This document shows positions 16,681 through 42,884 of a DNA stretch of 64,000 nucleotides, piece by piece. A program made the translations under genes and the position numbers. Source of the stretch: a virus; IMG/VR virus record IMGVR_UViG_3300024324_000009, positions 64,001-128,000 of that record. The stretch is one strand, 5' to 3'. How positions within the stretch are numbered: position 1 is the first letter of the stretch; every line of letters begins with the position of its first letter. The notes under the pieces are model-generated. The model had not been told where the DNA came from. It did not search any database and saw only the letters and a program-made list of their open reading frames with translations.

Positions 16681-17585
16681 GCTATATACGCCTCCTGAAT
16701 TTTGGTGTTAAATAATTCTGTTACTGCCTCTTGGAATTTACCCATATTGTAGTTCTCATCTAAGAACTTTCTACCTTCTTCTATATCTGGTCTGTCTTGT
16801 GTTAGTAGTTCTTCTATCTTTGGTAATATATTGGCACCATTATTTTCTATCATAATCTGTGGAGTGGTCATCTTACAGCTTCCTGTTCCGATAACCTTGG
16901 CTCCTAGTGCTACAGCACATAGACATTCATAGTTTCCATTAATAGTAGTATCTAGATAAACTTTGCAGTTCTTAACTTTTTCAGAGAACTCTTCAAAACT
17001 AGTAAACTGTTGTACTACCTCTACCGTAAGTCCTTTTTGCTGGGCTGCACCGGCTATCTGTTTACCAAGCAAGCTAGTGTCATGCACAAGTAGGTCGGTA
17101 GTCTGCTTGATGTCGTCTGTGGTCAACAGATCAAGAGGCACACCATAATTGATTACGGTAGAATTAGGCATATCTCCCCAAGATTCAGCGATATGCTTAT
17201 TCATAAAGAGTTTAGTTCTGTTAGCATTCTTCTGAGAACTAATGATATAGTCCTCTCTCTTCATATTAGGTGGCCTCATCTGATTAAAAACAACAACATT
17301 GTTCACATGTCTGTACAAAGAATCTTGTGGAGTATTGTCGTTCAGATCGTTGGTGACAGATAGGGCGTAAGTATTGTCATTAAAAAAGGGTTCTAACAAA
17401 GTCAAAGCCGTTCTGCTAGAAGGATTTTTAAATACATGGTTTTGCATAGGTTGCATATAATATCTGAAGTTAGTCTCAAAGATAGCACAATCATTAAGTC
17501 CTCCACTTGCTTTAAATATAATGTTGTGTGTTTTTTTGTGGTTTAATGACGATATAATATTTGTTACTGCTCTTGCTAGTTGCAT
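16677..17585 (-). CDS. Divergent GT4-like glycosyltransferase
   Basis: VINYGVP; VKNCKVYL...ECLCAVALGAKVIGT; RKFLDENYNMGKF. Confidence 0.55.
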   Translation of the reverse strand: MQLARAVTNIISSLNHKKTHNIIFKASGGLNDCAIFETNFRYYMQPMQNHVFKNPSSRTALTLLEPFFNDNTYALSVTNDLNDNTPQDSLYRHVNNVVVFNQMRPPNMKREDYIISSQKNANRTKLFMNKHIAESWGDMPNSTVINYGVPLDLLTTDDIKQTTDLLVHDTSLLGKQIAGAAQQKGLTVEVVQQFTSFEEFSEKVKNCKVYLDTTINGNYECLCAVALGAKVIGTGSCKMTTPQIMIENNGANILPKIEELLTQDRPDIEEGRKFLDENYNMGKFQEAVTELFNTKIQEAYIA

Positions 17586-18694
17586 ATTTTCTTTCCTATT
17601 GTTTGATAGCTAAATTGGTCCATAGATTCTCTACCTATTTGTCTTTTCTCTTCAAGTGTCTTTCTTTCTTTTTTACTCATTTCATATACTGTACGCATAT
17701 GATCAATCATAACATAAATATTAGGACGATACCAATAAGAATTAGCATTATAAATATCAAAGCTATTAGCTAATGTTCTTTGAGCAGATATCACTGGAGT
17801 TTTCTGACTAGAAATAACAAAGCCGTTCTTTTTATTTACAAAATCGGTCATACCTGTATGGTCTGTTACTATAGGAGTCTTACCTAAGACAAGTGCTTCT
17901 GCTGCTGGTCTACAAAATGCTTCTCCATGAGAAGCCATAACGAAACAGTCACAAGCATTGTGTAATCCTATTAAATCCTTATCAGACAGTCTTTCTGTGA
18001 TGACAAACTCATCTCTTGTCTGCCCAATGTTCAACATCTGTTTATGTTGGTTGAGTGCCTGTTTTACTATTCGTTGTCCTTCACCACTACTTTTACCGGG
18101 AACAGAAGTTTTTATAATTAAGGACACATTTTCATTGTCTCTAAAAGCTAGATTAAAAGCCGTAACCACATCAATTAGATTTTTTCTCTCAACAAACTCT
18201 CCAACATGGTAAAACTTAAAACTGCGATCAATAGATTTTTGCATATTAAGTTTATGGTCTGCATTTTCTTTAAGAAAATCTAAGTCCAATGCTCCTGAAA
18301 TAACCTTGCACTTGGTTTTGACTCCTGATTCTTTGACACTTTTAGCTTCCTGCTTGCTTGGCACACAGACTAAATCTAGGTTATTCAAGATATTCTGGCA
18401 AACAGAATCTGAAAGATTAGTGATCTCCATATTAAAAATGCCAACATTCTTTTTTACAGAATTGGTGATGGACATGCTCTGAGGAAGTAGTTCTTGATAA
18501 ATTACATCATATTTCGGATATGTGTTTTTCTCGTACTTAGCAATATCTTCGCTAATCTCAACGGACTGCCCAGTATAGAAATAGGGTCTAGTTGTTATAT
18601 TTTCCGTCTGAGTTGCTATAGACCTAATGTAGTCCCTAGCAGACATTCCCCATCCGTCATCTTGTCTGTATGGCCCTATAAATAGTGAGTTCAT
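17576..18694 (-). CDS. GT4 family glycosyltransferase
   Basis: FYHVGEFVERKN; CDCFVMASHGEAFCRPAAEALVLGKTPIVT. Confidence 0.85.
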   Translation of the reverse strand: MNSLFIGPYRQDDGWGMSARDYIRSIATQTENITTRPYFYTGQSVEISEDIAKYEKNTYPKYDVIYQELLPQSMSITNSVKKNVGIFNMEITNLSDSVCQNILNNLDLVCVPSKQEAKSVKESGVKTKCKVISGALDLDFLKENADHKLNMQKSIDRSFKFYHVGEFVERKNLIDVVTAFNLAFRDNENVSLIIKTSVPGKSSGEGQRIVKQALNQHKQMLNIGQTRDEFVITERLSDKDLIGLHNACDCFVMASHGEAFCRPAAEALVLGKTPIVTDHTGMTDFVNKKNGFVISSQKTPVISAQRTLANSFDIYNANSYWYRPNIYVMIDHMRTVYEMSKKERKTLEEKRQIGRESMDQFSYQTIGKKICN

Positions 18695-20370
18695 TAAGAT
18701 TGACCTTTCATGTTTGCATAATTTATGAAATCTTCTGGCGTTAGTTTATCTTCATTTCTCTGTGCATGGACTGCAAAGTTATGATTTTTAATATGCATAT
18801 TAAGTTGTTGTACAATATCTTTTTTAGTAATGCCCTTATTTTGCATTCCCATAATCCTAAAACCATAGTCTAGATCATGAATAGCATCAGTAATCACATT
18901 AGAACTTAAAAATTGTTCATTGTTGCCCATATGCATACCCGCTAATTGTGTAACATAGTCGTATGCAGAAGTATCTGCCGGTAGTTCATCTTCTTGAATC
19001 TCTTGTACAGGCTGTAGCTGGACATCCCATCGTCCTTGCAGTCCTGTAAGTTGCACATTGTCAAGACATTTTTCCCACTTTTTGGCAATGTTATCCCAGT
19101 TGTAATGTTTTTCTGTGTTTTGTCTGGTCTCAAACTTCTTAGAATCTTTTAACATATCTGGCATGTTGATATATTCTGTAAGTATCTCTACCAAATGATC
19201 ATTATCAGGATAGACTCTGATTGCTTTAGTCTCTAATTCTCTAAAGTATTGGTTGATTCTAATTGGGAAACCATTTAGCTTCTTAACAACATCTTGCATG
19301 GCACTGTAGTCTACACTGGCTACAGGAACTCCCGCACTTGCAGCTTCTACTTGTGGCATACCAAACCCTTCGCAGATTGCATACTGAACATAAATATCAA
19401 ATAAGTTGATAATAACATTTAGGTCTTGCTGAGAAATACCATTTGCTACATTTGGCATACTTAATGACTTGTTACCACACTTTGGACAAAAAGCCATAGG
19501 ATGCTTAAATCTTGCAGCATGATAAAATCCGCAAACTTTACAGTTGTATGTAAACATAACACGATTGCCTACTTCGTATTCTTTCAGGTACAAAGGAATA
19601 TCCCATCCTGCATCTGGATAACTCGTATGGATATGCAAATATGTTTTTGCTGCTTGTGGGTGATTATCTGCATGTAATTTCTTGACAAACTTATTGAATG
19701 CAGAAAACAACTCTGGTATTAATTTACGTTTCTGATTACGGCAAATTGTGCCTACAATAAAAGCATCCTCTTCTATACCCATTGCTTTTCGAATGTTCTT
19801 GCGTTGCTCTGCTTCTAGGGGCTTAAATACATCTAAGGAAACACCCGGACTAGTAGTATCAATATAATTAATGTGATTATTAGACTGATCAGCTAGTGTG
19901 TCTCTACCAAAATCACTGTAGGTAGTTATTGCGTCAGCGTGTAAGAAAGTGTCGATCCAGCCTTCTTGTTGTGGTGCAGAGTCCACAGTGGGCATAAGAA
20001 TCCAGTGAAAGTAAGGCCTAAAGGGTGTGTGTTGTTGATAAGAGTTCATCCAGTAATCACGGACATCGATCACGATATCTGGCTTGAAATCAATAAGTAC
20101 ACGTTCAAATCTCCAACGACCAAACTGATTTTCTGGAGACTTCATATATGTTTCGTGTCTAGGGTCTCCTTGAGGAACAGCATTTGCGTAATACCTCCAT
20201 TTGATTGTCGAGTCTTTAGGGTCATTTACTTTACCGTAGCAAGCAAATTCTGCAATTTCATACTTGCCTGTAGCATGTAGCCTTGAGAGAATTTCTTTAG
20301 CATATGTGCCAAAACCGGAACTTAAAAAACTAGCCTCAGATACCATCAACACTTTTAATTTTTTTGTCAT
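18694..20370 (-). CDS. GT4 family glycosyltransferase with zinc-ribbon insertion
   Basis: SGFGTY; RNQKRK; EGFGMPQVEAASAGVP; insert CKVCG..CPKCG. Start set at the ATG at 20370 (AGGA RBS). Confidence 0.85.
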   Translation of the reverse strand: MTKKLKVLMVSEASFLSSGFGTYAKEILSRLHATGKYEIAEFACYGKVNDPKDSTIKWRYYANAVPQGDPRHETYMKSPENQFGRWRFERVLIDFKPDIVIDVRDYWMNSYQQHTPFRPYFHWILMPTVDSAPQQEGWIDTFLHADAITTYSDFGRDTLADQSNNHINYIDTTSPGVSLDVFKPLEAEQRKNIRKAMGIEEDAFIVGTICRNQKRKLIPELFSAFNKFVKKLHADNHPQAAKTYLHIHTSYPDAGWDIPLYLKEYEVGNRVMFTYNCKVCGFYHAARFKHPMAFCPKCGNKSLSMPNVANGISQQDLNVIINLFDIYVQYAICEGFGMPQVEAASAGVPVASVDYSAMQDVVKKLNGFPIRINQYFRELETKAIRVYPDNDHLVEILTEYINMPDMLKDSKKFETRQNTEKHYNWDNIAKKWEKCLDNVQLTGLQGRWDVQLQPVQEIQEDELPADTSAYDYVTQLAGMHMGNNEQFLSSNVITDAIHDLDYGFRIMGMQNKGITKKDIVQQLNMHIKNHNFAVHAQRNEDKLTPEDFINYANMKGQS

Positions 20371-20385
20371 GTTTTGTCCTTGTGT

Positions 20386-20425
20386 AAAAATGAGAGAGAG
20401 GCACGGCATTGTCGGCCTCTCCCTC
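20386..20425 (-). terminator. Putative intrinsic terminator downstream of ssb
   Basis: - strand GAGGGAGAGGC-N12-GCCTCTCTCTC followed by ATTTTT. Confidence 0.5.
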
Positions 20426-20912: not shown

Positions 20913-22529
20913 TTAATTTTTTGGTAAATAAGCCTTTTCTACAATAAGGCTATCACCATCCCTATTTTTCGACCCTTGTATAACAATAACATTGTTTTCA
21001 AACAAAATACTACTATAGGTAGAAAATTGTTCAGGAAAGAACACGATACTGTCTATCGAGCCACTACTATCGCTTCCTTCCACAAAAGCCATCTTTGCTC
21101 CGGGGTTTTTCCCCTTTTTAGTCTTAATAACACCGACATTATCTATCTGTAAAGCGACGACAATCTCGTTGAGTAGACTATTATTAAAGTCCTTACATAT
21201 TGTGTTTGTCATAGATACGTCATACATATCTACTTTAGAACACGTTATCGAACAACCTAAATATTCTTCTTCATTATCGGCTATCCACTCTGGGCTATCT
21301 TCTAGCACATAAGGTGGATTGTCTATAGTATTAATGAAACCTAAGAGTTTTTCTTTTCTCTTACTGCTCATTCTTGGCTTTTCTATGACGCAGTATATGA
21401 TATCTTTTAATGAATCATAATTAAGACACGTACTTAACGCATGTTCTTGTTCTTTGGCTGTAAGATCATTTATAAGACCATATTCAAACATCATCTTGGT
21501 TCTAGTAAGCCCAAAATAATCTAATGCACCTGACTGTATCAAAGCCTTGACCGCTGTTGAACTTAGCCTTGTCATAACTCTAAGTACTGTTTGATGCCAA
21601 TTTAAGTCATTGAGATTAATATTATCTTCTTCTAGTATGGTTCTAAGTTTCTTGTACATAGAACCGCCAAAACCCTTTAGGTCTGTCAGTCCGAAATAAA
21701 TTTTCTTATCATGTAGTACAAAATATTCATTCAGCACACGCAAATCAGGCAGATGTACTGTGATCTCCATTTCGCTGGCGTTTTGTACCAGTTGCTTGAT
21801 CTCTACTTTGGGATCAATCTTGTCTTTAGCAAAACGTAAATATGAAGCAAAGAATACTCTTGGGAAGTGAGCCTTCGCGTATGCGGACAGATATGCGTTC
21901 ATAGCATAGGACACAGCATGACTTTTATTAAAACTGTATCTCTGGCTTTTTTCAATCCATCCGAATATCTCTTCTGCCTGTTCTTTTGTGACTAATTTAA
22001 GTTTTGCAGAACCGGAGATGAACTTCTTTTTTAGTTTCGCCATTTCTTCTGGTTGCTTTTTACCAATGGCTTTTCTCAGGTTGTCTGCTTGTTGCAAGTC
22101 AAACCCTGCTACCTCTTTTGCAATTTGCATAGCTTGTTCTTGGTAAATCATTTCACCATATGTACTCTTTAGTGCATTTTCCAACATGGGATGATAATAG
22201 TCTACAGACTCTTGCCCGTTCTTTCTGTCGATATAATGATTAGTAACATTCTTGCCATCTCTGTATGCCTGTAGACATCCCGGTCGTAGAATACTAATTA
22301 ATGCACTTAATTGTTCAATGTTTTCTGGTTTAAGTTTCTTAGCCACAGATTTTCCAAGCCTAGTCTCCAACTGAAAACATCCTTTAGTATTACCATCAGA
22401 TATTAAATCCCAAGTCTTTTGGCAATTCAAATCCAATTCATGGTTTACAGGATCGAAATCAATAGAAGTCTTACCCTCACTCTCTGTAGCATGAAAACTA
22501 CAACCACAACTAAATTTTAATACTGTCAT
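20913..22529 (-). CDS. dnaE: DNA polymerase III alpha subunit, C-terminal half (finger/HhH/OB domains)
   Basis: GCFQLE; LRPG; TYGEMIYQEQAMQIA; ADNLRKAIGKK; YSFNKSHAVSYA; ALIQSGALD; OB fold MAFV..D..GSID.IVF. Confidence 0.92.
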   Translation of the reverse strand: MTVLKFSCGCSFHATESEGKTSIDFDPVNHELDLNCQKTWDLISDGNTKGCFQLETRLGKSVAKKLKPENIEQLSALISILRPGCLQAYRDGKNVTNHYIDRKNGQESVDYYHPMLENALKSTYGEMIYQEQAMQIAKEVAGFDLQQADNLRKAIGKKQPEEMAKLKKKFISGSAKLKLVTKEQAEEIFGWIEKSQRYSFNKSHAVSYAMNAYLSAYAKAHFPRVFFASYLRFAKDKIDPKVEIKQLVQNASEMEITVHLPDLRVLNEYFVLHDKKIYFGLTDLKGFGGSMYKKLRTILEEDNINLNDLNWHQTVLRVMTRLSSTAVKALIQSGALDYFGLTRTKMMFEYGLINDLTAKEQEHALSTCLNYDSLKDIIYCVIEKPRMSSKRKEKLLGFINTIDNPPYVLEDSPEWIADNEEEYLGCSITCSKVDMYDVSMTNTICKDFNNSLLNEIVVALQIDNVGVIKTKKGKNPGAKMAFVEGSDSSGSIDSIVFFPEQFSTYSSILFENNVIVIQGSKNRDGDSLIVEKAYLPKN

Positions 22530-23215
22530 GCAAAAGCGTCCTTAAATGTTATTTTTTGTGCCAAACTTCTATGCAGTCTCATAAATCTTGTAAGCACTGC
22601 TGCTGTGTCCTTAACGTCCTTAATTGCGTCATGAGCACCATCTTTACTAATACCCATATAATCTCTCAGGTTGTCTAGAGTATAACTTTTTAGTTCTGGG
22701 TTATGCTCAAACCAGTAAAAGACTAGATTAAGCATGTCCACCACATCTCTTGGATAAAAGACTTTGCTGTTTCCTTCTTTATTAGTATCTCCGAATTTCT
22801 GAGCGAGCCTATTAACGATGGGTAGATCAAATCTATAAATATTATAGCCTGCTGCTATCGGAGCAGTAAACATACTGTGCTTCTTGGCTTTCATATGGTA
22901 TTTGTCCAGATAGTCTGTAAACATACGCCATGACTGTTCTTGGCTAGGATACTTTTGCCATTCAGCCTTGACCGCTTCCTTTGAGCAACCCTTAACCTTG
23001 GCATGAAAATCTAAGATGTCTGTCTTATATTCATACTCAGGGTCTTTTTCCATGCACTCTGGTTTAAAATTAGCATTAAACTCAGAGTTAGGTATAATTT
23101 CAAGACTGACAGGATCAACCATTACGGCAGCAATTTGTACTGGACTACATTTGCTTGGGTTTACCCCATCTGTCTCAAAATCAAACACACAAATCTTATT
23201 ATAATTAATTCCCAT
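22526..23215 (-). CDS. DEDDh 3'-5' exonuclease (DnaQ/epsilon-like)
   Basis: VFDFETDG (ExoI), AGYNIYRFD (ExoII), HDAIKDV (ExoIII). Confidence 0.9.
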   Translation of the reverse strand: MGINYNKICVFDFETDGVNPSKCSPVQIAAVMVDPVSLEIIPNSEFNANFKPECMEKDPEYEYKTDILDFHAKVKGCSKEAVKAEWQKYPSQEQSWRMFTDYLDKYHMKAKKHSMFTAPIAAGYNIYRFDLPIVNRLAQKFGDTNKEGNSKVFYPRDVVDMLNLVFYWFEHNPELKSYTLDNLRDYMGISKDGAHDAIKDVKDTAAVLTRFMRLHRSLAQKITFKDAFA

Positions 23216-23246
23216 ATCAAATCCTATTCTATGTCCTGATCAAAAT

Positions 23247-23465
23247 CTAAAGTAACTTACGAACTCTTTCTAGTGGCTTAATGCCAATCAATTTACCTTT
23301 ACTGTCTTTGCAATTAGTAAAGCTACAACAGCTTTTACGAACTTCTTTAACTTTGGTCATTTTATTGTCTAATCCACGAACAAAATCACCTTCTGTTAGA
23401 AATACATCGCCTACACTTAGTTTGCGAAACTGGTGTTGCTCTGTTGCTGGTTTTTCATCTGACAT
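23247..23465 (-). CDS. Small hypothetical protein
   Basis: AGGAG RBS; FRKLSVGDVF..SCC..NC; first gene after the 23495-23523 promoter. Confidence 0.6.
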   Translation of the reverse strand: MSDEKPATEQHQFRKLSVGDVFLTEGDFVRGLDNKMTKVKEVRKSCCSFTNCKDSKGKLIGIKPLERVRKLL

Positions 23466-23494
23466 CTTTATTCTCCTGTACTGTACTATATGTT

Positions 23495-23523
23495 ATTATA
23501 CCCGATAATGAATACACCGTCAA
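23495..23523 (-). promoter_or_regulatory. Sigma70-type promoter TTGACG-N17-TATAAT between the dnaE halves
   Basis: cTTGACGgtgtattcattatcgggTATAAT; the -35 overlaps the TGA stop of dnaE-N. Confidence 0.65.
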
Positions 23524-25394
23524 GCACCTTCTTTCATAAGATCGCTAATGCACATAATCTTATCTAGCATAGCAACCCCTAGAATATCTAGCTTGATCAT
23601 TCCAAGACTTTCAAGGTCAGCCATTTCCATGCCAGCAATTACCTGTTTGTTTTTACTGTCATAGACCATCGGACAGATACCGGCAAGAGGCTCTGCACTG
23701 ACTGCTATACCAGCAGCATGTTTTGACTGAACCGATTTGGTTCCTTCCAATCTCATAGCTTGTTCAAATCTTTTTGACAACGGACCTTCTAATTGACCCT
23801 TTTTACCTATATGACACCACTGTTTTAGTTTTTCAGGGTCGTTCTCTAGTGTCCATCTAATAATAGAAGACTCTCCTGTTGCCTCTTTCATTTCTTGTAA
23901 TTCATCTGCCACTTTAGACTCTTCAGGAATATTTCTAGTGATATCATTCATTTCTTCAAATGTGATACCTCCAAACACCCTAAGTACATCTTTTAATGCC
24001 CCTCTACCCTTGATAGTACCAAACGTAATCATCTGTGACACCTTATCGTCTCCGTAAGTATCACGAATATACTGAATGACTTTTTCACGTTTGTCGATAG
24101 GTACGTCAACATCAATATCAGGCATAGAGGTATGTTCTGCTGTATTTCTACCAGCATTATAAAACCTATCAAAGATGAGACCGTACTTTATAGGGTCAAT
24201 GGTTGTAATACCAATTAGGTAAGAAACCAAACACCCTGCTGCACTTCCTCGTCCCGGTCCCGGTAGCCATTTGTTTTCACGTACATGATTCACAATGTCC
24301 TGTACAATCAGAAAGTAACTAGATAGGTCTGCACCCTGCAAAACACTTAATTCATACTTGATTCTATCTACATATTTTCCATGATCTTCTTTAGGTATAT
24401 TATTAGCTATCTTATCTCGCCATCCGTCCCTGCATAGTTGACGCAAATACTCTCCGTCATCTTTGGCTTCTGGACAGGGAAACGGAGGCAGATTTGGCTT
24501 ACTTAATATGTCATACTCTTCACACATGTCAGAAACAACATTAGTGTTTGCTAGTTCTTCTTCTGTGTGCAGGGCATTCATTTCTTCTTGATCTAATATA
24601 TGAAAATTATCAGATTTAAAAAAGGCATCCAAACCAATAGACTCGCCATTGGACATCTTCCTATTTACCTCTGAGAAGGTCGTTTTTAAATTATTGCACA
24701 AAAGCACCCTTTGATCAACTGCGTCTGTCTTACGGCAATAATGAGCGTCTGGAGTTGCTACAATCCTATTGCCTGTAATCTTTGCTAGTTCTCTGATACA
24801 GTCTGTGAGTTTGTCCTGTAGAGGAATATTCTCATGATCCATCAACTGTGCTTCTAAGAAGAAGTTTTCTTTACCAAACATATGGTTTAACTTACTGACT
24901 AGTCTAGTGCCGACATTTTTCCAATTCGGGTCTATGTCGTCTCCCTGCACTAAATACCTAGCCAGCGTTGATCCTAGATGACCACATATTCCTATAATAT
25001 TACCATCAATAAAATTAGATAATGTATCTAGGTCTAATCTAGGCTTTCTGTAAAAATGCTCAGGAAGGTTTGCTTCTGATGTTAGTCTAATTAATTGTTT
25101 CCATCCTTTAAAATTTTTAGCCAGCAGGAGGAAGTGACTCAACTTTGCATTATCTTTGTCTTTGATTTTGCAGTCTTGTTCACAGACATAGATTTCTTGT
25201 CCAAGTATGGGTTTTATTCCTTGTTTTTTCATCTCTGAGTAAAACTTGATCGCACCGGCAATGTTACCGTGGTCTGTTAATGCACAGGATGTCGCACCAA
25301 TTTCAATACATCTCTCTGCCATGTCTGCTGGTTTGCTCATACCGTCAAGTAGGCTATACATACTGTGGCAGTGAATCGGTTGGTAAGTTATCAT
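23520..25394 (-). CDS. dnaE: DNA polymerase III alpha subunit, N-terminal half (PHP + catalytic palm/thumb)
   Basis: HCHSMYSLLDG; ALTDHGN; PGRGSAAG; MPDIDVD; KHAAG; ends at GMIKLDILG. Confidence 0.93.
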   Translation of the reverse strand: MITYQPIHCHSMYSLLDGMSKPADMAERCIEIGATSCALTDHGNIAGAIKFYSEMKKQGIKPILGQEIYVCEQDCKIKDKDNAKLSHFLLLAKNFKGWKQLIRLTSEANLPEHFYRKPRLDLDTLSNFIDGNIIGICGHLGSTLARYLVQGDDIDPNWKNVGTRLVSKLNHMFGKENFFLEAQLMDHENIPLQDKLTDCIRELAKITGNRIVATPDAHYCRKTDAVDQRVLLCNNLKTTFSEVNRKMSNGESIGLDAFFKSDNFHILDQEEMNALHTEEELANTNVVSDMCEEYDILSKPNLPPFPCPEAKDDGEYLRQLCRDGWRDKIANNIPKEDHGKYVDRIKYELSVLQGADLSSYFLIVQDIVNHVRENKWLPGPGRGSAAGCLVSYLIGITTIDPIKYGLIFDRFYNAGRNTAEHTSMPDIDVDVPIDKREKVIQYIRDTYGDDKVSQMITFGTIKGRGALKDVLRVFGGITFEEMNDITRNIPEESKVADELQEMKEATGESSIIRWTLENDPEKLKQWCHIGKKGQLEGPLSKRFEQAMRLEGTKSVQSKHAAGIAVSAEPLAGICPMVYDSKNKQVIAGMEMADLESLGMIKLDILGVAMLDKIMCISDLMKEGA

Positions 25395-25406
25395 AAGTTC
25401 TCCAAA

Positions 25407-25610
25407 TTAGTATTCGTCTGAAAAGTTTCCATCAAGTTCTCCATCGCTCACAATATCCATTGCACCCAACATGCATATGGTATCCATGAATTCGTCATTG
25501 TTCTCGTCATCGTCGTTTTGTTGATCGTTTTGCTTCTTTGATTTCTCAGCAGGACTGAAAGCACAATATGCACAAAATAAAGCAAGCAAAATCCATAGTA
25601 TCGATTCCAT
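25407..25610 (-). CDS. Small membrane-anchored acidic protein
   Basis: N-terminal hydrophobic segment, acidic tail, GGAG RBS and its own promoter. Confidence 0.55.
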   Translation of the reverse strand: MESILWILLALFCAYCAFSPAEKSKKQNDQQNDDDENNDEFMDTICMLGAMDIVSDGELDGNFSDEY

Positions 25611-25646
25611 AATTTATTCTCCAAAAACAATTCAAAGTTCTCTTCT

Positions 25647-25674
25647 ATTGTAACACATTCTGACTACTTGTCAA
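25647..25674 (-). promoter_or_regulatory. Sigma70-type promoter TTGACA-N16-TACAAT
   Basis: acTTGACAagtagtcagaatgtgtTACAAT; the -35 overlaps the TGA of the upstream gene. Confidence 0.7.
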
Positions 25675-26714
25675 GTAGAACCCGGAGCACGATATTTAGC
25701 TACGTTGTATCCATCGACTTGATATACCTTTACAGCTTCTTTGATGCCGTGCATACGAGTATCATGCTTAACTTGCTCACACATCGTCATAACTTCTCCT
25801 ACAGGAGTAACCTGATCTTCTCTGTATTCTACAAGAGGTTCGTGCTTGGTGCCAGCAAATGTCTTTTTACCGAAATCGCATAGTTTTGTACACTTCCATG
25901 TTTTCTTGAGAGGTGGACGCTTACAGTTTTTGATATCCTCGAAAGTTTTACGCAGCATCATCTCAACTTTAAATAAATCTCCTTTTTCAAAATTTATAGA
26001 AAATATGCCGCCGTCATTAATAAAATTAATCGTAACTATAATATGTTTTGCTTGAGGATACAAATGTTGAATAGCATAGTAATACAGCATTAGCTGTGGG
26101 TCTCTCTGTAACTTAGCTATGGTCTTCTCTTCACCTGTGGCCCAATCCAAACGCCTTCCTGTTTTATAGTCAGTAATCTCATATGTATCATCGTTAATTT
26201 TTGTGATCAAGTCGATTGTACCTTTAATCGCCAACTGTCCTTTGACATGGTTGCCTTCTGCGTCAGTAAAGTCATACCAAGCCCAAGGCTTATCAATAGT
26301 AATATCAAACCGTTGTTCAGGCTGGATGATATGCTGATTTCTGGGGTCTAACATACCATTGTTCTGCTCTAAACATTTTTGTATCCATTTTCTACAATCT
26401 CTGTAGTCTACGTCAGTCCATTTATGGTGTGTAAACGCACTGGTATAATAATCATAGACTTTTTGCGTTAAATCATCTATGCTATAATTATGTACATTGA
26501 CATATCCTACAATATCATCCTCAAAGCTACCTTCTTTGTTTTGCAGTCCTAACTGTACGAAAGCAAGTATCTCCATCACCTTATGAACGATGGTTCCTTT
26601 GTCTGCTTTCTTATTAGAATCTCCATTGTGTCCTAATACATACTGGAAAAAGTATTGTTGATTACACATTTTCCATGTGCCTAGTGAACTACTTCTAATA
26701 TATGCTATATCCAT
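25671..26714 (-). CDS. Cas4/RecB-like PD-(D/E)XK exonuclease with probable Fe-S cluster
   Basis: SSL..WKMC; GTIVH..E; GTIDLI; DYKTG; QLMLY; CTKLC...C. Confidence 0.85.
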   Translation of the reverse strand: MDIAYIRSSSLGTWKMCNQQYFFQYVLGHNGDSNKKADKGTIVHKVMEILAFVQLGLQNKEGSFEDDIVGYVNVHNYSIDDLTQKVYDYYTSAFTHHKWTDVDYRDCRKWIQKCLEQNNGMLDPRNQHIIQPEQRFDITIDKPWAWYDFTDAEGNHVKGQLAIKGTIDLITKINDDTYEITDYKTGRRLDWATGEEKTIAKLQRDPQLMLYYYAIQHLYPQAKHIIVTINFINDGGIFSINFEKGDLFKVEMMLRKTFEDIKNCKRPPLKKTWKCTKLCDFGKKTFAGTKHEPLVEYREDQVTPVGEVMTMCEQVKHDTRMHGIKEAVKVYQVDGYNVAKYRAPGST

Positions 26715-26722
26715 AAAATCTC

Positions 26723-27796
26723 CTATCGAGTTAAAACGCCACCATCCCTTGAAAGCATTAGTTTATCCCATGCAGACAAGGCATCAGGAGCCGTACTGGG
26801 CAGCACCTCAATGTTGTTATTAATAAAATGTGTTGATCCATCAACAAATACCACACCAACTCCACCGGGATGTAGACTTCTAGAAGTTGCTTCATTGTTA
26901 GTTAAATTAAAACAACTCATCCCTTGTGCGTTCATGTCGTAGCTTTGTTGTAAAAGGTTGCAGTTTATTACATTGTCTGCACCTGACGAGGTATTAGCAT
27001 TTGGCCCAGCAGCATCTAGACTCACCCCATCATAAGTTAAGCCGCCATGACCCCATAACGCACTACTGCCAGCACCAGCCATAGCCCAGCAACCTCTAGA
27101 ATCTCGTTCGTCGATACCTGCACGAATTTCTGCTAATAAACAAGTATTAGAAGTTCCATCAGTTATATGTCCGAACTGACTACTCGCTCCATACCCCATG
27201 ACTCCTCTAAGCATAGGGTCGTTCCAGTTCTTGCCATTATTGCCCAGAGCATTAAATGGAGGATGTAAAGTCAAAGAGAACATACCTAGGCCTGCGTTAG
27301 CAGCATAGTTACCTCTAGCCCAGTTATCACCCCATTGTGCAGACCTAGAAGCAGAAGTGCCATTAAATGGCTTCCTATTATATGGGTCACTAGCACAAAG
27401 CATAACACTAAGTTCTGTAGAACGCAACGCCTCATTGCTTGGTGCTGATACAGTAAACCTAGAGTCGCTTTCGTCGTGTAGAGACTTTACTGTGCTTTGC
27501 TCTACATAGTCTAGGATGTCAATTACCCAATTCTTTGTTCTGGTATATGAACCAATGCCATCTGGTGGCAAGTTAGGATCGTTTGATGAAATCTTATGAC
27601 TAGCATACGGAAATCTACGATGTGCAGACTCGTAATTGTGACACGCTAGCCCTAACTGTTTCATATTGCTGGCACAAGACATACGTCTTGCAGCCTCTCT
27701 TGCGGATTGCACAGCAGGCAACAACAAGCCAACAAGCACACCGATGATGGCAATAACAACAAGTAGTTCGATTAAAGTAAATGCTTTCTTATTCAT
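26723..27796 (-). CDS. DUF1559 family prepilin-type N-terminal cleavage/methylation protein with H-X9-DG motif
   Basis: KKAFTLIELLVVIAIIGVLVGLLLPAVQSAREAARRMSCASNMKQLGLACHNY; ITDGTSNTCLLAE; SLHPGGVGVVFVDGSTHFI. Confidence 0.93.
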   Translation of the reverse strand: MNKKAFTLIELLVVIAIIGVLVGLLLPAVQSAREAARRMSCASNMKQLGLACHNYESAHRRFPYASHKISSNDPNLPPDGIGSYTRTKNWVIDILDYVEQSTVKSLHDESDSRFTVSAPSNEALRSTELSVMLCASDPYNRKPFNGTSASRSAQWGDNWARGNYAANAGLGMFSLTLHPPFNALGNNGKNWNDPMLRGVMGYGASSQFGHITDGTSNTCLLAEIRAGIDERDSRGCWAMAGAGSSALWGHGGLTYDGVSLDAAGPNANTSSGADNVINCNLLQQSYDMNAQGMSCFNLTNNEATSRSLHPGGVGVVFVDGSTHFINNNIEVLPSTAPDALSAWDKLMLSRDGGVLTR

Positions 27797-28374
27797 AGTA
27801 ATTTCTCCAAAGTTAAAAAGTTGTCCAATTCATTCAAAGTCTCTTGTACCGTCTTATTAGTATTGTCAATAACTAAATCGAAGTTATCTATTGAAAAATA
27901 AGTGTGATCTAATGCAGTCTCACTGGCATGGTTACTATTATACACGTTCCGTTCCAGTTTGACAACCACCCCGCCAGCATTTTTTATACATTCTACTTCA
28001 TTAGGGAAACGACAGTCTGCTACAAGTGCCAGAAAAGGTGAATCTTTTTCTATGCGACCTATAGTTGCTGCTGACCATACATCATTTTTAATAGTACGAA
28101 ATATATCTGTTCCTACATACTGCATTACTTCTCTAGCAGTCATGTTTTTCCCATGTCTCTTACATTCTGTCAAAGTGTTCTTTGCAGCATCGTCGCCGTA
28201 ACACTGGGTATATGTCAAACCTAAAACATCCATACATACAGTGCGTTTTAGTGGATCAGCAAAATTATATACTTTGCATACTTTATCTCCTGTACACTTA
28301 GACGCAAGGTGTTCTGCACAAGTTGTTTTACCAGACTGTTTTCTGCCAGCAAATGCAATAATCTTAGTTTTCAT
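27793..28374 (-). CDS. Deoxynucleoside monophosphate kinase
   Basis: AGRKQSGKTT; FADPLK; REVMQYVGTD; DCRFPNE; HASE. Confidence 0.9.
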   Translation of the reverse strand: MKTKIIAFAGRKQSGKTTCAEHLASKCTGDKVCKVYNFADPLKRTVCMDVLGLTYTQCYGDDAAKNTLTECKRHGKNMTAREVMQYVGTDIFRTIKNDVWSAATIGRIEKDSPFLALVADCRFPNEVECIKNAGGVVVKLERNVYNSNHASETALDHTYFSIDNFDLVIDNTNKTVQETLNELDNFLTLEKLL

Positions 28375-29540
28375 ATAACGTCCTTTATATACTGTTTGAT
28401 TTCCTTGTCAATTTCTTCACTAGTCATTTCACCAATGTCACCCTTAGATATTTCTGGTATAAATACCCTGTAAGTGTTTTGGCATTTGTTCTTAATCTCT
28501 TGTGCCGCCTGCTTACCAGCCTCATCATTATCGGTCAATACTATTATAGCCATTGCTCCCGAAGAGTCCAGTAATATTTTCTGTCTATCGCTCAGATTAC
28601 AGCCAAATATAGCTACACTATTATGTATGCCATTCTCTTCTAGTCTCCATACATTGCCGGGACTCTCTACGATAATAGCTACATGAGACTGCTCTATATG
28701 CTCTTTGGCAAAACCTTTCCAATAGTTGTACAAATTATTCTGACTTTTAAAATCTGCACTATGTTTCCATTTAGAGTAGGCCCATCTATATTCTGAATCA
28801 GGACAATCTTGGTTGGGGTCATGGTAAGCACCACATTTAGGACAAGCCTCAAATATGCTGCGACCAGTACAGCCTACCATATTATCATATTCTAGATTGT
28901 ATATGGGTGCTACTACACGATTATTCATAGGCTTGCCTTTAGAGGCACACAAACCAACGTCATACCTGTCCAATACTTCCTGTGAATATCCTCTATTTAT
29001 AAAGTATTCAGCAGGATAAATTAGTGAACTTCTAACTTGTTTTCTGGTAATCTTAGAGGCTTGAACTTTGTCTTCTTCCCTTATATGATTAATTGCATTG
29101 GTAAAGTTAGACTTATTGCGATTGACCTTTGTGATCTTAATATCTTTCATGTCTTTGTTGACAAACTTTTCTAAGAAAGTTACTGCTTCTTTAAAGGTTG
29201 CCATCTTATCGCCTTGCTTATACCACTTATATTTTCTGTGTGATATAATACCTCTTACGAAACCTATTAGTGAACCCCTAAAGCACTTTTGACAACCATG
29301 AGTCCTACACTTCCAGTTACCCTTATAATTATCGTAGGCATCATCACCCACATGATAAATGTTCAGTGCGGAGTCATTGTCTCCACCGTGTATGGGACAA
29401 GGCATACTATACATCTTGCCTTTATCTTTATATTCAAGATCAAAGTAGTCAAACAATGCTTCTATGTCATCACACGCCATATCGCATAGTATTTTTAACT
29501 TTTTCTGATCACTCGAATGGGATTTGTTCGCTGTCTTCAT
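28371..29540 (-). CDS. dnaG: DNA primase (CHC2 zinc finger + TOPRIM)
   Basis: CPIHGGDN..WKCRTHGC; YFINRG; IVESPGNV; LTDNDEAG. Confidence 0.85.
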   Translation of the reverse strand: MKTANKSHSSDQKKLKILCDMACDDIEALFDYFDLEYKDKGKMYSMPCPIHGGDNDSALNIYHVGDDAYDNYKGNWKCRTHGCQKCFRGSLIGFVRGIISHRKYKWYKQGDKMATFKEAVTFLEKFVNKDMKDIKITKVNRNKSNFTNAINHIREEDKVQASKITRKQVRSSLIYPAEYFINRGYSQEVLDRYDVGLCASKGKPMNNRVVAPIYNLEYDNMVGCTGRSIFEACPKCGAYHDPNQDCPDSEYRWAYSKWKHSADFKSQNNLYNYWKGFAKEHIEQSHVAIIVESPGNVWRLEENGIHNSVAIFGCNLSDRQKILLDSSGAMAIIVLTDNDEAGKQAAQEIKNKCQNTYRVFIPEISKGDIGEMTSEEIDKEIKQYIKDVI

Positions 29541-30978
29541 TATTTTCCTCTACCAAAAAGCCATCTGATTCTTGTCCACGATTATTCATTACTTCTAATT
29601 TAGTTTTACCTTCGGTAATCTTTGCACACCAACCTTTCATGTTGCAGTTGATGTAGTCGTTATCGTCTAGTCCTCCACCATGACGACTAATAAGAGGAAC
29701 TAGCTTACGGTTGCCGTTGTCTGCACCATCTTCAGCAATCTCTTCAGACGACTTGCGTTTAAAGATACTGAAATTGCTACAGAGCCATACGATTCTATCT
29801 GAGCCGCTAGCCGTATCTGTGCTCTCTTTTGTTATACCGTCACGGTTTAGCTGAATAAATGCCATGATAGGTATTTTATATTTTGTTGCGAAGTTATGTA
29901 GTTGTGTCATCATAAATCCCAACAGTTGATACTCTTTCATATCCGCACTCATGCCTTGCGTATCCATCAATTTTAGGTAGTCATAGAAGATAACACAGTC
30001 TTTTGCTGTGCCGTCATCATTTAGTCCTACTTCTTTTACGATCCATCTACGCACAATAGACATTTGATCTTCAAAACTTTTACCAGCAATAGACTTATGA
30101 TAATACGGTGTCTTTTTAAGTTTAGCCATTGCTTCTATTATTTTTGTTTTGTTTGCGGGTGTGCCAGCAAACCTTCCGGTTTCTATATCATTTATCTCAA
30201 CCTCTGTCATCATAGCCAGAACACGATTGATATGGTCTTCTTTAGTCATTTCAGTATCCATATTTAATACTGGGATACCGAGTTCACTAGCTATATAAAA
30301 GCCCATATTGTCTGATAATAAAGTCTTACCAGTTTTTGGTCTAGCAGCAATCACGTTGACTGTGGACTTTCTTAGTCCCCCACCTATAGCCTGATCGTAT
30401 GCAGGGAAGCCAGTAGAAATACCTACTTGGTCAACTTTATTTTCTACAAGGTCTTTGACATACGCATCTATATCGCTTCCGATAGTTTCTGGTTTACCAT
30501 CAGAATCATTCAACACGTTCGTAAAATCAAAAACAGCATCTTCAGCTACAGCCAGAATAGAACCAATGCTCTCTGTGCCAGTGACATCCAACAGTTTGTC
30601 TCCAGCCCCTTCTAATTGTTTCTTTAGTAGTCTAGCTATTTCTAGTTTGCGAATTTTTGCTGCAAACTTTCTGACGTTATCCAGATTCACGGGGAAATCT
30701 ATTACGGCTTTGAGATGCTGAACCTCATCCTTTTTCTGAATAACTGCACCAAGAGTTAACTCTTCAGCAGCAGAAAAGATAGATGCCACATCAATAGATG
30801 TTTGTACCTCTTCTTTATCAAAAATAGTCTTCAGGCATTTAAACAGTATCACATTACTGTCTACAGTAAACGTAGATTCGGTTACAATGTCTGCTATATC
30901 TAACCAGCCGTCATGACCATACTTGCACAATCCTGCAAGCACTGCTCGTTCTGCTGATGTGTCGCTTAATACTAACAT
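29509..30978 (-). CDS. dnaB: Replicative DNA helicase
   Basis: AERAVLAG; AARPKTGKT; DTEM; FYDYLKLM; QLNR; SRHGG. Confidence 0.92.
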   Translation of the reverse strand: MLVLSDTSAERAVLAGLCKYGHDGWLDIADIVTESTFTVDSNVILFKCLKTIFDKEEVQTSIDVASIFSAAEELTLGAVIQKKDEVQHLKAVIDFPVNLDNVRKFAAKIRKLEIARLLKKQLEGAGDKLLDVTGTESIGSILAVAEDAVFDFTNVLNDSDGKPETIGSDIDAYVKDLVENKVDQVGISTGFPAYDQAIGGGLRKSTVNVIAARPKTGKTLLSDNMGFYIASELGIPVLNMDTEMTKEDHINRVLAMMTEVEINDIETGRFAGTPANKTKIIEAMAKLKKTPYYHKSIAGKSFEDQMSIVRRWIVKEVGLNDDGTAKDCVIFYDYLKLMDTQGMSADMKEYQLLGFMMTQLHNFATKYKIPIMAFIQLNRDGITKESTDTASGSDRIVWLCSNFSIFKRKSSEEIAEDGADNGNRKLVPLISRHGGGLDDNDYINCNMKGWCAKITEGKTKLEVMNNRGQESDGFLVEENNEDSEQIPFE

Positions 30979-41894: not shown

Positions 41895-42884
41895 TTAATT
41901 TTTCCAGTAAGAATAAATATTTTTATCTATTTCATAAAAAGGCCAAATGAACCTTTCACGTTTAGGTTGCTTTTTAGCCCAATCCCACATATCAACTAGA
42001 CCTTCTTTTAGATCGGTCTTGTGTTCAAAATCTAATAAGTCTATAGATTTTTGGTAAGTAGCGAAAGCATGTTTTACTTCGTGTCTACTCTCTAAATGTT
42101 TTTTAGAACCATCTCCTATGATATTTAACAAAGTGTCACAGGCGAAATTTATAGAAAATTCTTTCATTCCTCCTAGATTAATAATTTGCTTAGATGCTCT
42201 GGAGTCAACCGCTGATTTAAATAGTGGTTCTACGCTGTCATTAATATGGCTGAATGCTCTTGTCTGATGACCATCTCCAAATATAGTCATAGGTTCATTG
42301 TTTAATGCCTGATACATCCATATTCCTAATACGTTTCTGTATTTATCCCAAATGTTCTGTTTGCGACCATAAACATTATGGGGTCTAATAACACACCAAT
42401 CTAAACCGTGTTGCTCTCCTGCTATGCGTATATCGCACTCAGCAGCATATTTAGCGACTCCATATGGATCAATAGGCATAGGCTGCATATCTTCATCGAA
42501 TGGTGCTTCTAAGTTACCATATGTAGCCATAGTAGAAGTAAATACAAGTCTCTCTACTCCATTCATGATACAGCAGTTGACCACATTTGCGGTTGCCTTG
42601 AGATTATTTTCATAATTAAAACATCTAATAAAAGGACTCAATCCTTCCGCTGCATAAGCGGCTAGATGAAATACATAATCCGGTTTAATTCTAGCAAAAT
42701 AGTTCTTAAAGTCAGAGTGGTTGCAACTAATTTTATTATGGTTTACGCGAGGGTCTATATTGTTTTCATATCCTCCACTCATATCATCAGCACCATAGAC
42801 TATCCAATCTGTACTATCTAATATATAGTCTGCTAAGTTAGAGCCTAGAAGTCCAGCATTACCAGTTATTAAGCATTTTGTCAT
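41895..42884 (-). CDS. NAD-dependent nucleotide-sugar epimerase/dehydratase
   Basis: ITGNAGLLGS; FHLAA; PYGVAK; RPHNVYG; GDGHQTRAF. Confidence 0.92.
   Translation of the reverse strand: MTKCLITGNAGLLGSNLADYILDSTDWIVYGADDMSGGYENNIDPRVNHNKISCNHSDFKNYFARIKPDYVFHLAAYAAEGLSPFIRCFNYENNLKATANVVNCCIMNGVERLVFTSTMATYGNLEAPFDEDMQPMPIDPYGVAKYAAECDIRIAGEQHGLDWCVIRPHNVYGRKQNIWDKYRNVLGIWMYQALNNEPMTIFGDGHQTRAFSHINDSVEPLFKSAVDSRASKQIINLGGMKEFSINFACDTLLNIIGDGSKKHLESRHEVKHAFATYQKSIDLLDFEHKTDLKEGLVDMWDWAKKQPKRERFIWPFYEIDKNIYSYWKN

Follow-up and report, generated by a model that had tools for sequence, protein, structure and literature searches.

A Planctomycetota-type DUF1559 prepilin-like gene embedded in the replication operon of a tailed phage

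The complete 171-kb tailed phage record from which the window derives (the whole stretch analysed here, 64,000 nucleotides; positions 64,001–128,000 of IMG/VR record IMGVR_UViG_3300024324_000009) carries an intact gene for a prepilin-type H-X9-DG protein of the DUF1559 family, located within its replication operon. This protein (copy 1; 26723–27796 on the minus strand, as are all features given below with coordinates; PF07596, PF07963 and TIGR04294) is probably a functional envelope subunit that depends on host machinery, as judged from its sequence and setting. Most likely, it would join a pilus-like structure of the host early in infection and either change a receptor or keep uptake running. 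DUF1559 is the largest paralogue family of planctomycetes: R. baltica has 74 members and P. limnophila 68, of which two are essential; neither is its function known nor has a structure been solved. The literature searched contained no description of phage capture of DUF1559.

Gene identity and prepilin signal

Copy 1 is a genuine, intact member of the DUF1559 family. The open reading frame starts with ATG, encodes 357 amino acids and has its boundaries exactly at 26723–27796. It matches positions 1–266 of the 268-position PF07596 (DUF1559) profile with 160.5 bits (cut-off 23.3), directly preceded by a PF07963 (N_methyl) match of 29.9 bits (cut-off 21.2). TIGR02532 matches residues 4–25 (28 bits, cut-off 16.3) and the H-X9-DG profile TIGR04294 matches residues 306–326 (26.8 bits, cut-off 19). 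The first-pass annotation, which had described a complete DUF1559 gene with a prepilin cleavage site and an H-X9-DG motif, is thus borne out by the PF07596, PF07963 and TIGR04294 scores.

The class III (prepilin) signal occupies residues 1–27 (27716–27796; TIGR02532). The leader is only five residues long (MNKKA–FTLIELLVV...; MNKKA followed by FTLIELLVVIAIIG), with cleavage predicted before Phe6 (Phe+1), Glu10 at position Glu+5 and a hydrophobic alpha1-N segment. The signal therefore has the elements of its class: a short basic leader, Gly or Ala at −1, Phe or Met at +1 and Glu+5. Residue −1 is Ala where the canonical residue is Gly; Ala at this position is, however, common in the family, occurring in 7 of the 20 cellular members of set A1 and, in a larger set, in 21 of 76 cellular (28%) and 32 of 74 viral sequences. 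The H-X9-DG motif (His309...Asp319-Gly320; 26837–26872; TIGR04294) lies on the last two beta strands, and a 95-sequence alignment shows no exception for H309 or D319 and hardly any for G320. Alignments of 24 and 95 sequences show that copy 1 has every family-invariant column, including C41, W90, C134 and D213-G214, and both conserved cysteine pairs are retained. Among viral homologues, the class III motif is present in 74 of 74 and the exact H-X9-DG in 67.

We rejected an assignment of copy 1 to the type II secretion (T2SS) pseudopilin GspG because its TIGR01710 score (37.1 bits, aligned over residues 5–66 only) is far under the equivalog cut-off of 88.85. Some DUF1559 proteins are named ‘GspG precursor’ by NCBI.

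Structure

The AF2 model of copy 1 (pLDDT 89.7, pTM 0.88) contains a high-confidence helix at residues 8–59 and strands at 312–317 and 322–326. Sequence matches to solved pilins (geopilin, 2.3e-11; PilE1; GspG) cover residues ~1–70 only. A fold search with the whole model gave 19 chains at Z ≥ 2, of which 17 were pilins or pseudopilins, aligned across residues 6–330, with a best Z of only 4.4; GspG/PulG (TIGR01710; PDB 5wda and 4lw9) align over the N-terminal 60 residues and show weak whole-fold similarity (Z 3.1–3.6), and copy 1 is about 2.5 times longer than these proteins. Foldseek searches of copy 1 against the PDB and BFVD returned nothing at E ≤ 0.001, and the ESM Atlas gave only noise below 0.8. 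For the head domain folded in isolation, VIA returned nothing at Z ≥ 2 and Foldseek nothing at E ≤ 10. The model thus appears to combine a pilin scaffold with a head of ~250 residues, and structural relatives were found for the scaffold only.

Operon setting

The replication operon (20913–30978; Pfam matches) encodes, in order, DnaB, primase, kinase, DUF1559, nuclease, the N-terminal part of PolIII-alpha, a 3′-5′ exonuclease and the C-terminal part of PolIII-alpha. Copy 1 is coupled on both sides, as first proposed, between a dNMP kinase upstream (27793–28374; PF21448, 53.7 bits; phrog_139, 144.1 bits) and a PD-(D/E)XK (RecB/Cas4-like) nuclease downstream (25671–26714; PF12705, 67.2 bits; phrog_69, 89 bits). 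At the upstream junction (27793–27808), read directly in the DNA, the start of copy 1 (ATG, 27794–27796) and the stop of the kinase (TGA, 27793–27795) overlap by 4 bp in CTATGA, with a GGAG (27805–27808) 8 nt upstream. The ATG of the nuclease follows the TAG stop of copy 1 after 8 nt. Scans for promoter- and terminator-like sites around both DUF1559 copies of this phage (see below) gave matches at chance level, with no excess near copy 1.

Residence and selection

Two independent IMG/VR contigs from other samples (L003 and L004) have the same operon gene order with DUF1559, and the exact copy 1 protein is present on 8 contigs. Relative to L003 and L004, copy 1 has dN/dS values of 0.07–0.16, and values for replication genes are 0.02–0.08; purifying selection on copy 1 is comparable with that on replication genes. 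Synteny and selection together dispose of an assembly chimera, which the first-pass annotation had named as a finding that would overturn it.

The same annotation described the gene as AT-rich like its neighbours and took this as a sign of long residence. The compositional statement was wrong: with a GC content of 0.437, copy 1 ranks above nearly all genes of the phage (98th percentile). This excess sits in codon position 2 and so reflects amino-acid composition. The conclusion on residence nevertheless stands because GC3 is ameliorated (0.338, inside the phage range; 0.56–0.61 in the nearest cellular homologues) and because synteny is kept in the two other contigs.

Copy 1 diverges more between close relatives than the genes around it (83% identity between L003 and L004; 97% for neighbouring genes). 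The 88 variable positions fall mostly within residues ~80–160 and 260–300 of the globular body (26897–27559; differences among close orthologues). In the L003–L004 comparison, a mosaic segment has a dN of 0.26 and saturated dS, and dS in the rest of the gene is 0.5–0.6; one variable segment thus looks as if it had been swapped by recombination. This pattern of variability is as expected for an exposed, contested surface and speaks for superinfection exclusion as the purpose. No region of copy 1 has dN/dS > 1.

Origin and distribution

In the tree, copy 1 sits inside a group of cellular proteins of Pirellulales type (45–49% identity); the 15-row set that joins it with these cellular rows is starred (98*). 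The nearest cellular proteins are from Lacipirellulaceae (Adhaeretor mobilis P0008, 49%; Posidoniimonas corsicana P0058, 45%), and identity to any cellular protein found is at most 49%. The reported massive expansion of the family in Planctomycetota was confirmed: three genomes hold 55–88 copies and 0 of 14 control genomes hold any, and 79 of the best 80 genome matches were to Planctomycetota. The proposal that the gene indicates the host held in part. The placement of copy 1 in a Pirellulales-type clade is indirect evidence for a Pirellulales-type planctomycete as the candidate host, but the GC content of the phage is ~18 points lower than that of the cellular loci.

DUF1559 is not a core gene of this phage lineage, being absent in 12 of 13 relatives identified by their polymerase. 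In L006, L007, L009 and L010 the nuclease directly follows the kinase, with DUF1559 absent between the two. The gene appears dispensable because six near-complete polymerase relatives are without any DUF1559. By these comparisons, copy 1 is a recent, lineage-specific insertion that was derived from a host and captured from a planctomycete. A host-derived auxiliary gene is expected to stem from cells, to have resided in the phage for long and to be under purifying selection there, and copy 1 shows all three. Beyond this lineage, IMG/VR contains at least 296 DUF1559 loci spread over about 10 viral clades, which points to about ten independent captures by phages; GenBank phages contained none.

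A second DUF1559 gene

The same phage has a second DUF1559 gene (copy 2), which lies outside the window and shares 32% identity with copy 1. Duplication inside the phage was rejected, as a common origin of the two copies fails the AU test, and copy 2 was apparently acquired independently. It belongs to a 93-member clade made up of virus and metagenome sequences only, with dN/dS values of 0.10–0.15, and at 27 of the 31 loci compared the copy-2-type gene is more conserved than the other shared genes around it. One copy-2 relative (P0216) is encoded on a 2.9-Mb contig. We searched 301 Planctomycetota genomes and scored seven candidates per genome. A threshold of E ≤ 1e-60 left both copies without a match and was too strict for this negative to count; when it was relaxed to 1e-38, 3 of the 301 genomes gave a match to copy 2 (38–43% identity).

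Copy 2 moves as its own cassette, with a tandem CTAACA repeat, a −10 box and a covarying 5′ hairpin. The covariation was established by per-sequence folding and loop-anchored pair counts; RNAalifold on a MAFFT alignment of the copy-2 leader, in which the stems are misaligned, predicted nothing, and the leader had no match in Rfam. A role of the CTAACA repeat as an operator of the host found no support: in five Planctomycetota genomes, none of them known to be the host, it matched once, and the reversed control matched 20 times.

Proposed function and alternative readings

An ancestor of the phage would have taken copy 1 from a Pirellulales-type planctomycete, with insertion at the kinase–nuclease junction of the replication operon. 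Because its translation is coupled with that of replication-operon genes, the protein would appear early to midway through an infection that is probably lytic; the 100%-complete record encodes no integrase, with neither a tyrosine nor a serine recombinase detected. The precursor is predicted to enter the inner membrane of the host through its class III signal, to be cut before Phe6 by the prepilin peptidase of the host and then to be taken up by the host pilus or pseudopilus machinery. Only two prepilin leaders are encoded by the phage, and searches for Peptidase_A24 and the T2SSE ATPase found neither in it (the controls gave matches in 12 of 14 and 14 of 14 genomes), so that any processing or assembly must rely on the proteins of the host. 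Copy 1 would then work as a subunit rather than as a poison, placing a head domain specified by the phage into one of the many DUF1559-based envelope structures of the host. As its purpose we prefer the replacement or masking of a receptor, which would block the adsorption of further phages to the infected cell as shown for the P-FimU minor pilins of prophages. The account as a whole, with superinfection exclusion included, is one that we advance tentatively and at less than even confidence.

The strongest competitor, although one that we think is rather unlikely, is an auxiliary role in substrate capture, by which the cellular DUF1559 proteins would serve as binding modules of the planctomycete envelope with a pilin-type anchor and the phage copies would keep up or boost nutrient uptake while host expression fails. 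Genes for a di-haem cytochrome c peroxidase (188.6 bits) and a protein with a 3-keto-disaccharide-hydrolase domain form a tight operon with the closest cellular relative (L085), which also adjoins FGE-sulfatase and arabinofuranosidase/CBM genes; this setting of exported, substrate-processing enzymes favours the uptake reading, but the cellular context comes from two loci. A partner lipoprotein is encoded just downstream in about 43% of cellular loci but is absent in most phages. The phage also encodes DUF1501 (429.9 bits), another exported planctomycete-signature family, although co-occurrence of DUF1501 and DUF1559 is not significant (7/15 versus 1/8, P = 0.18). Extra conservation of the copy-2 type would fit auxiliary genes that mimic those of the host, and the repeat of its cassette resembles a regulator site, yet this repeat is not enriched in the Planctomycetota genomes and copy 1 is without a regulated promoter. 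The head domain alone gave no structural match, and no ligand-binding fold was recognized in it.

It is improbable that copy 1 is instead a decoy that enters the host machinery, stops fibre growth and so removes a pilus or T2SS receptor, in line with an earlier suggestion of a jamming pseudopilin. Assembly can be blocked by pilins that are truncated or made in excess (discussed in PMC12952977), expression of copy 1 would be early and most phages have no partner lipoprotein. However, copy 1 is full-length, and jamming is less likely than a functional subunit because all assembly determinants and family-invariant residues are kept (Glu+5, the Cys pairs and H-X9-DG among them), as the class III motif is in all and the exact H-X9-DG in most of the viral homologues. 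Purifying selection extends over the full length of the protein, when a poison would need just the N-terminal helix.

We regard as very improbable a passenger gene that contributes nothing to infection, or an artefact of assembly or binning. The family makes up ~1% of host genes, a copy number so high that chance pick-up should be frequent, and both the patchiness among relatives and the repeated captures would suit such a reading. Selection and synteny largely refute it; the occurrence of the exact protein on several contigs, the fully ameliorated GC3, the tight translational coupling on both sides and the maintenance of a large phage-only clade under constraint also stand against it. Just as doubtful is a pilin-like virion protein that engages the host pilus or T2SS channel at adsorption or DNA entry: certain phages reportedly require a functional T2SS for infection (PMC9765573), but the gene is in a replication operon on the strand opposite the tail-fibre and virion block, its product has a class III signal with a membrane-inserting helix, and no PHROG structural match extends past the pilin leader.

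Comparison with known systems

Copy 1 shares with the cellular DUF1559/SBP_bac_10 proteins of Planctomycetota the full architecture, the leader, Glu+5, the cysteines, H-X9-DG and the invariant residues. It differs in being encoded by a phage within a replication operon, in its very short leader, in its GC3 (0.34, compared with 0.56–0.61 for cellular genes) and in having no partner lipoprotein. The function of the cellular proteins is unknown, and neither fibre formation nor a role as a phage receptor has been established for them (PMC10632474, PMC2754498).

The closest precedent for the preferred reading is P-FimU, a group of FimU-like minor pilins encoded by prophages of the F10-like phages of Pseudomonas aeruginosa, in which the phage pilin is incorporated into the host pilus and adsorption is blocked (Sztanko et al., Cell Rep 2026, PMC12952977). 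Like P-FimU, copy 1 is a phage copy of a host pilin-type protein that retains its assembly determinants and depends on host machinery, and by analogy the same logic may apply, with a surface component replaced to block other phages. P-FimU, however, is expressed from prophages, whereas copy 1 is from a phage without an integrase; the pilin family and the host phylum also differ. High diversity sets P-FimU proteins apart from the main phage DUF1559 clade, that of copy 2, in which conservation is unusually strong. Copy 1 itself shows faster change than its neighbours and the mosaic segment, but no dN/dS > 1.

PilA-like genes have also been reported in virulent phages and in Xylella fastidiosa prophages, with early production for superinfection exclusion suggested as a putative role (PMC12952977). 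These are likewise pilin homologues in non-temperate phages, but they are of the classical small PilA type, some truncated to 60 residues, unlike copy 1 with its much larger head.

The DUF1559 proteins of planctomycete cells, and the substrate-capture reading of the phage copies, have a possible functional analogue in the archaeal ‘bindosome’, without a demonstrated relation in sequence or fold. In Sulfolobus, this system comprises large paralogous sets of sugar-binding envelope proteins with class III signals and pilin-type assembly.

Implications

Phage DUF1559 can serve as a sequence marker by which to recognize a large set of phages that are uncultured (about 150–230 kb, 30–40% GC) and without a deposited relative. 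The strong selection on the phage copies implies that a single DUF1559 protein is useful alone, without its usual lipoprotein partner, and these copies single out a few subfamilies to test first. The idea of phage-encoded parts for host pili, as developed for P-FimU, would be extended to a new phylum, a new class of pilin and virulent phages. More speculatively, planctomycete phages may keep DUF1559 proteins as working, exchangeable head modules of an undescribed envelope fibre or binding system that is reprogrammed during infection, with the phage-only lineage as a mobile, self-regulated cassette, although we think that this is on balance unlikely. If it were true, a phage with two subfamilies, one coupled in an operon and one in its own cassette, would be a compact natural experiment, and the function of the largest paralogue family of Planctomycetota would become directly testable.

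A prepilin-like gene within the replication operon

The DUF1559 gene in the window (copy 1) is an open reading frame of 357 amino acids that begins with ATG and occupies exactly positions 26723–27796 of the minus strand. Its product matches the full length of the Pfam DUF1559/SBP_bac_10 profile (160.5 bits against a cut-off of 23.3), the Pfam N-terminal methylation motif (29.9 bits) and the NCBIfam domain for the C-terminal H-X9-DG motif (26.8 bits; cut-off, 19), which bears out the first-pass description of a complete gene with a prepilin site and this motif. The leader reads MNKKA/FTLIELLVV (slash, cleavage site), with phenylalanine at +1 and glutamate at +5. The textbook residue at −1 is glycine, but the alanine seen here is normal for the family: 21 of 76 cellular homologs carry it, as do 32 of 74 viral ones.

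The replication operon runs in the order DnaB, primase, dNMP kinase, DUF1559, PD-(D/E)XK nuclease and split PolIII-alpha with a 3′–5′ exonuclease. The proposed coupling of copy 1 to the kinase upstream and the nuclease downstream is seen in the DNA: the kinase stop and copy 1 start overlap (CTATGA), GGAG lies 8 nt upstream, and 8 nt separate the copy 1 stop from the nuclease ATG. Promoter- and terminator-like sites around copy 1 are no more frequent than in shuffled sequences, so that copy 1 looks like a cistron within the operon. The DnaE-type polymerase (20913–25394, minus strand) is divided into an N part of 624 amino acids (PHP and core) and a C part of 538 amino acids (fingers, HhH and OB), between which lie a 72-amino-acid ORF and the separate exonuclease gene.

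The window covers bases 64001–128000 of a virus record 171,040 bp in length (CheckV completeness, 100%), with 38% GC and about 93% coding; the window contains no tRNAs. The plus-strand block has several tail-fibre and virion-protein matches and ends in a 3,030-amino-acid ORF (993–10085, plus strand), and giant ORFs of 4,824, 3,525, 2,217 and 1,914 amino acids lie further upstream. On the long minus-strand block lie the replication genes, together with those for ribonucleotide reductase, glycosyltransferases and a UvsX-like recombinase. A pair of adjacent glycosyltransferase genes and one for a nucleotide-sugar epimerase (17576–20409 and 41895–42884, minus strand) could be further modifiers of the host surface. 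The complete record yielded neither a tyrosine nor a serine recombinase, so the phage is probably virulent. It has no close relative among GenBank phages (top PolIII-alpha identity, 34%).

Conservation and residence of copy 1

L003 (87 kb) and L004 (8 kb), IMG/VR contigs that come from other samples, keep the order primase–kinase–DUF1559–nuclease–polymerase, and their proteins are 89% and 82% identical to that of copy 1. Given this synteny, copy 1 is not an assembly chimera. Eight contigs encode the identical protein, and the cluster formed at 90% comprises 25 members, carried by contigs of up to 205 kb. Values of dN/dS are 0.07–0.16 for copy 1 and 0.02–0.08 for the replication genes. Two segments of copy 1 hold most of the differences, and one of them has the look of recombination between L003 and L004. 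The DUF1559 proteins of these contigs (L003:6001–7074 and L004:1937–2998) are 83% identical, compared with 97% for the replication modules otherwise; synonymous divergence is saturated at residues ~80–160 and 260–300 and about 0.55 elsewhere, which suggests a swapped segment. The polymerase split also occurs in L003.

Copy 1 had been described as AT-rich like its neighbors and hence long resident. In the simple sense the first point does not hold, as its GC of 0.437 is at the 98th percentile among the genes of the phage, with the excess in codon position 2. Long residence is nevertheless supported, since its GC3 of 0.338 is phage-like compared with 0.56–0.61 in the nearest cellular homologs.

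Two copies with separate histories

Screening the full record for family members revealed a second DUF1559 gene (copy 2) outside the window, at G000:C1:145873–146859 (L002:1444–2430, minus strand; 328 amino acids). The two proteins are 32% identical and are the only ones in the phage with prepilin-type leaders. Identities to copy 1 fall from 90, 80 and 65% (metagenome proteins) directly to at most 49%, where named homologs from Lacipirellulaceae appear (Adhaeretor mobilis and Posidoniimonas corsicana). For copy 2, identities step down without a break from 94% to 45% across more than 120 unnamed clusters, mostly on phage-sized contigs; among 301 Planctomycetota genomes its best matches are 38–43% identical, in 3 genomes.

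In a 246-sequence tree, copy 1 and its L003 and L004 orthologs nest inside a clade of 53 sequences (support, 100) that includes Pirellulales-type proteins from cells. Copy 2 falls with 44 other IMG/VR and 48 metagenome sequences into a clade of 93 (support, 87) that includes none of the 76 genome-derived sequences. A 49-row IQ-TREE phylogeny agrees, placing copy 1 in a starred set of 15 rows, 8 of them cellular-type. A single clade of both phage copies was rejected by an AU test for which the groups were named after the first tree was seen (delta lnL = 140, P = 6.5 × 10−55).

Copy 2 is a mobile cassette. Genes of its type occupy at least three genomic positions and are more conserved than other shared genes in 27 of 31 loci, by a mean of 24 identity points. 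Their pS of 0.54–0.68 (dN/dS, 0.10–0.15) is lower than the 0.69–0.94 of saturated neighbors, so part of this conservation reflects more recent sharing between phages. In related phages, the copy-2-type gene is usually the most conserved of its neighborhood and, in relatives more distant than L003, can sit inside the polymerase split.

Upstream of copy 2 (L002:2431–2551, minus strand) is a conserved expression unit comprising a tandem repeat ([CT]TAAC[AG]-N4-6-[CT]TAAC[AG]), a box (TGCCG...GGGTATAAT), a 5′ hairpin and a Shine–Dalgarno site; the unit recurs in L013, L018, L037, L045, L047 and other related loci. Repeat and box occur once in the 171-kb genome and precede 28 of 71 viral DUF1559 genes, every one in the copy-2 clade; five Planctomycetota genomes show no enrichment of the repeat. 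The hairpin (L002:2440–2490, minus strand, and its counterparts in the 5′ UTRs of 16 related loci; alignment A4) has 5–8 bp and begins about 10 nt past the −10 box. Its 14 distinct stems show three to four Watson–Crick pair types at positions 2–6 from the loop, indicating compensatory variation; it has no match in Rfam and is probably a 5′-terminal stem-loop with a stabilizing or regulatory role. Copy 1 lacks repeat, box and hairpin, which means that the two genes are under different control.

Distribution among phages

An alignment-based scan of IMG/VR, where prevalence had been raised as a check, found at least 296 stretches encoding a DUF1559 relative; the best 80 are mostly from phages that have other genes in common with this one. 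The 74 viral sequences on the tree fall into about 10 clades that contain viral members alone, and they require at least 9 changes between virus and cell. The class III motif, the prepilin-type leader signal, is kept in all 74, and exact H-X9-DG in 67. No DUF1559 protein occurs among 50,697 GenBank phage records, and a literature search returned no paper naming DUF1559 together with phage.

Two copies in one phage are unusual: each of 19 large DUF1559-positive contigs has exactly one (six are 100% complete and two have terminal repeats). DUF1559 is also not core to the lineage. Of 13 large relatives picked solely through the polymerase, just one, the near-identical L003 contig, carries the gene; six near-complete polymerase relatives are without it. 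In four related viral loci (L006, L007, L009 and L010) the nuclease directly follows the kinase, making copy 1 a sub-lineage-specific insertion.

Cellular relatives and the host

DUF1559 is present in 55–88 copies in each of three Planctomycetota genomes and in none of 14 controls, and 79 of the best 80 genome matches are to Planctomycetota, in line with the expansion claimed in the first-pass annotation. The best reading, although indirect, is that the host belongs to the Planctomycetota and is probably Pirellulales-like. As a host indicator, DUF1559 is favored by the Pirellulales-type clade of copy 1; base composition counts against it, with 38% GC in the phage (viral loci median, 35%) versus a median of 55.7% and a minimum of 43.6% in cellular DUF1559 loci. 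Across this record and viral loci L004–L083, the DUF1559-bearing phages divide into a low-GC group (30–40% GC; gene GC3 about 0.2), which has an 18-point gap to planctomycete GC, and a few high-GC contigs (gene GC3, 0.66–0.86), such as L077 (229 kb) and L080, which alone match it.

The DUF1559 literature gives no function. In about 43% of cellular loci, a lipoprotein of ~150 amino acids with a lipobox, 'GTVTLDGKP' and a weak carboxypeptidase-regulatory-like (CarboxypepD_reg) domain is encoded directly downstream. A profile search did not find it in this phage; among viral loci it follows DUF1559 only in L017 (6064–6567), L045 (8903–9364, plus strand) and L046. The cellular relative closest to copy 1 (L085) shares its operon with genes for a di-haem cytochrome c peroxidase and for a protein with a 3-keto-disaccharide-hydrolase domain, adjoining sulfatase-maturation and arabinofuranosidase/CBM genes. 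The phage also encodes DUF1501, another planctomycete-signature exported family (429.9 bits; G000:C1:150160–151461, minus strand; L167:14160–15461), 3.3 kb from copy 2. None of its best 120 homologs has a name and most lie on phage-sized contigs, which makes DUF1501 a phage lineage too; on contig G317, two DUF1501 genes adjoin a DUF1559 gene.

Structure and possible function

By sequence, copy 1 resembles solved proteins (geopilin, PilE and GspG) over residues ~1–70 only. Its AlphaFold model is of high confidence (pLDDT, 89.7; pTM, 0.88) and has a helix at residues 8–59. Foldseek returned nothing significant for the model in PDB and BFVD; an independent aligner gave 19 chains at Z ≥ 2 (top, only 4.4), of which 17 were type IV pilins or pseudopilins with alignments spanning residues ~6–330. 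The head (residues 60–305), folded alone (pLDDT, 86.5), had zero matches with either program. The models weakly suggest a pilin scaffold, formed by alpha1 and the C-terminal strands bearing H-X9-DG, that carries a large predicted head for which a solved relative is not detectable.

Copy 1 is an intact, host-derived pilin-type gene under selection and is translated together with replication genes. The phage lacks the processing and assembly enzymes: neither a prepilin peptidase nor a T2SS/T4P ATPase was found in it (the positive controls gave matches in 12 of 14 and 14 of 14 genomes). A host peptidase would cleave the protein, and host machinery may then take it in as a working subunit. An auxiliary gene for substrate capture is nearly as likely as the purpose that we favor; it fits copy 2 better than exclusion would, and is the better fit to the cellular neighborhoods and the co-carried DUF1501. 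A poison that would block host assembly is unlikely because copy 1 retains its full length and every invariant residue. We favor receptor replacement or superinfection exclusion as a possible purpose, because copy 1 diverges faster than its neighbors, with its changes grouped in the two segments described above, expression would be early, and prophage-encoded FimU-like minor pilins (P-FimU) of Pseudomonas aeruginosa phages offer a precedent (PMC12952977).
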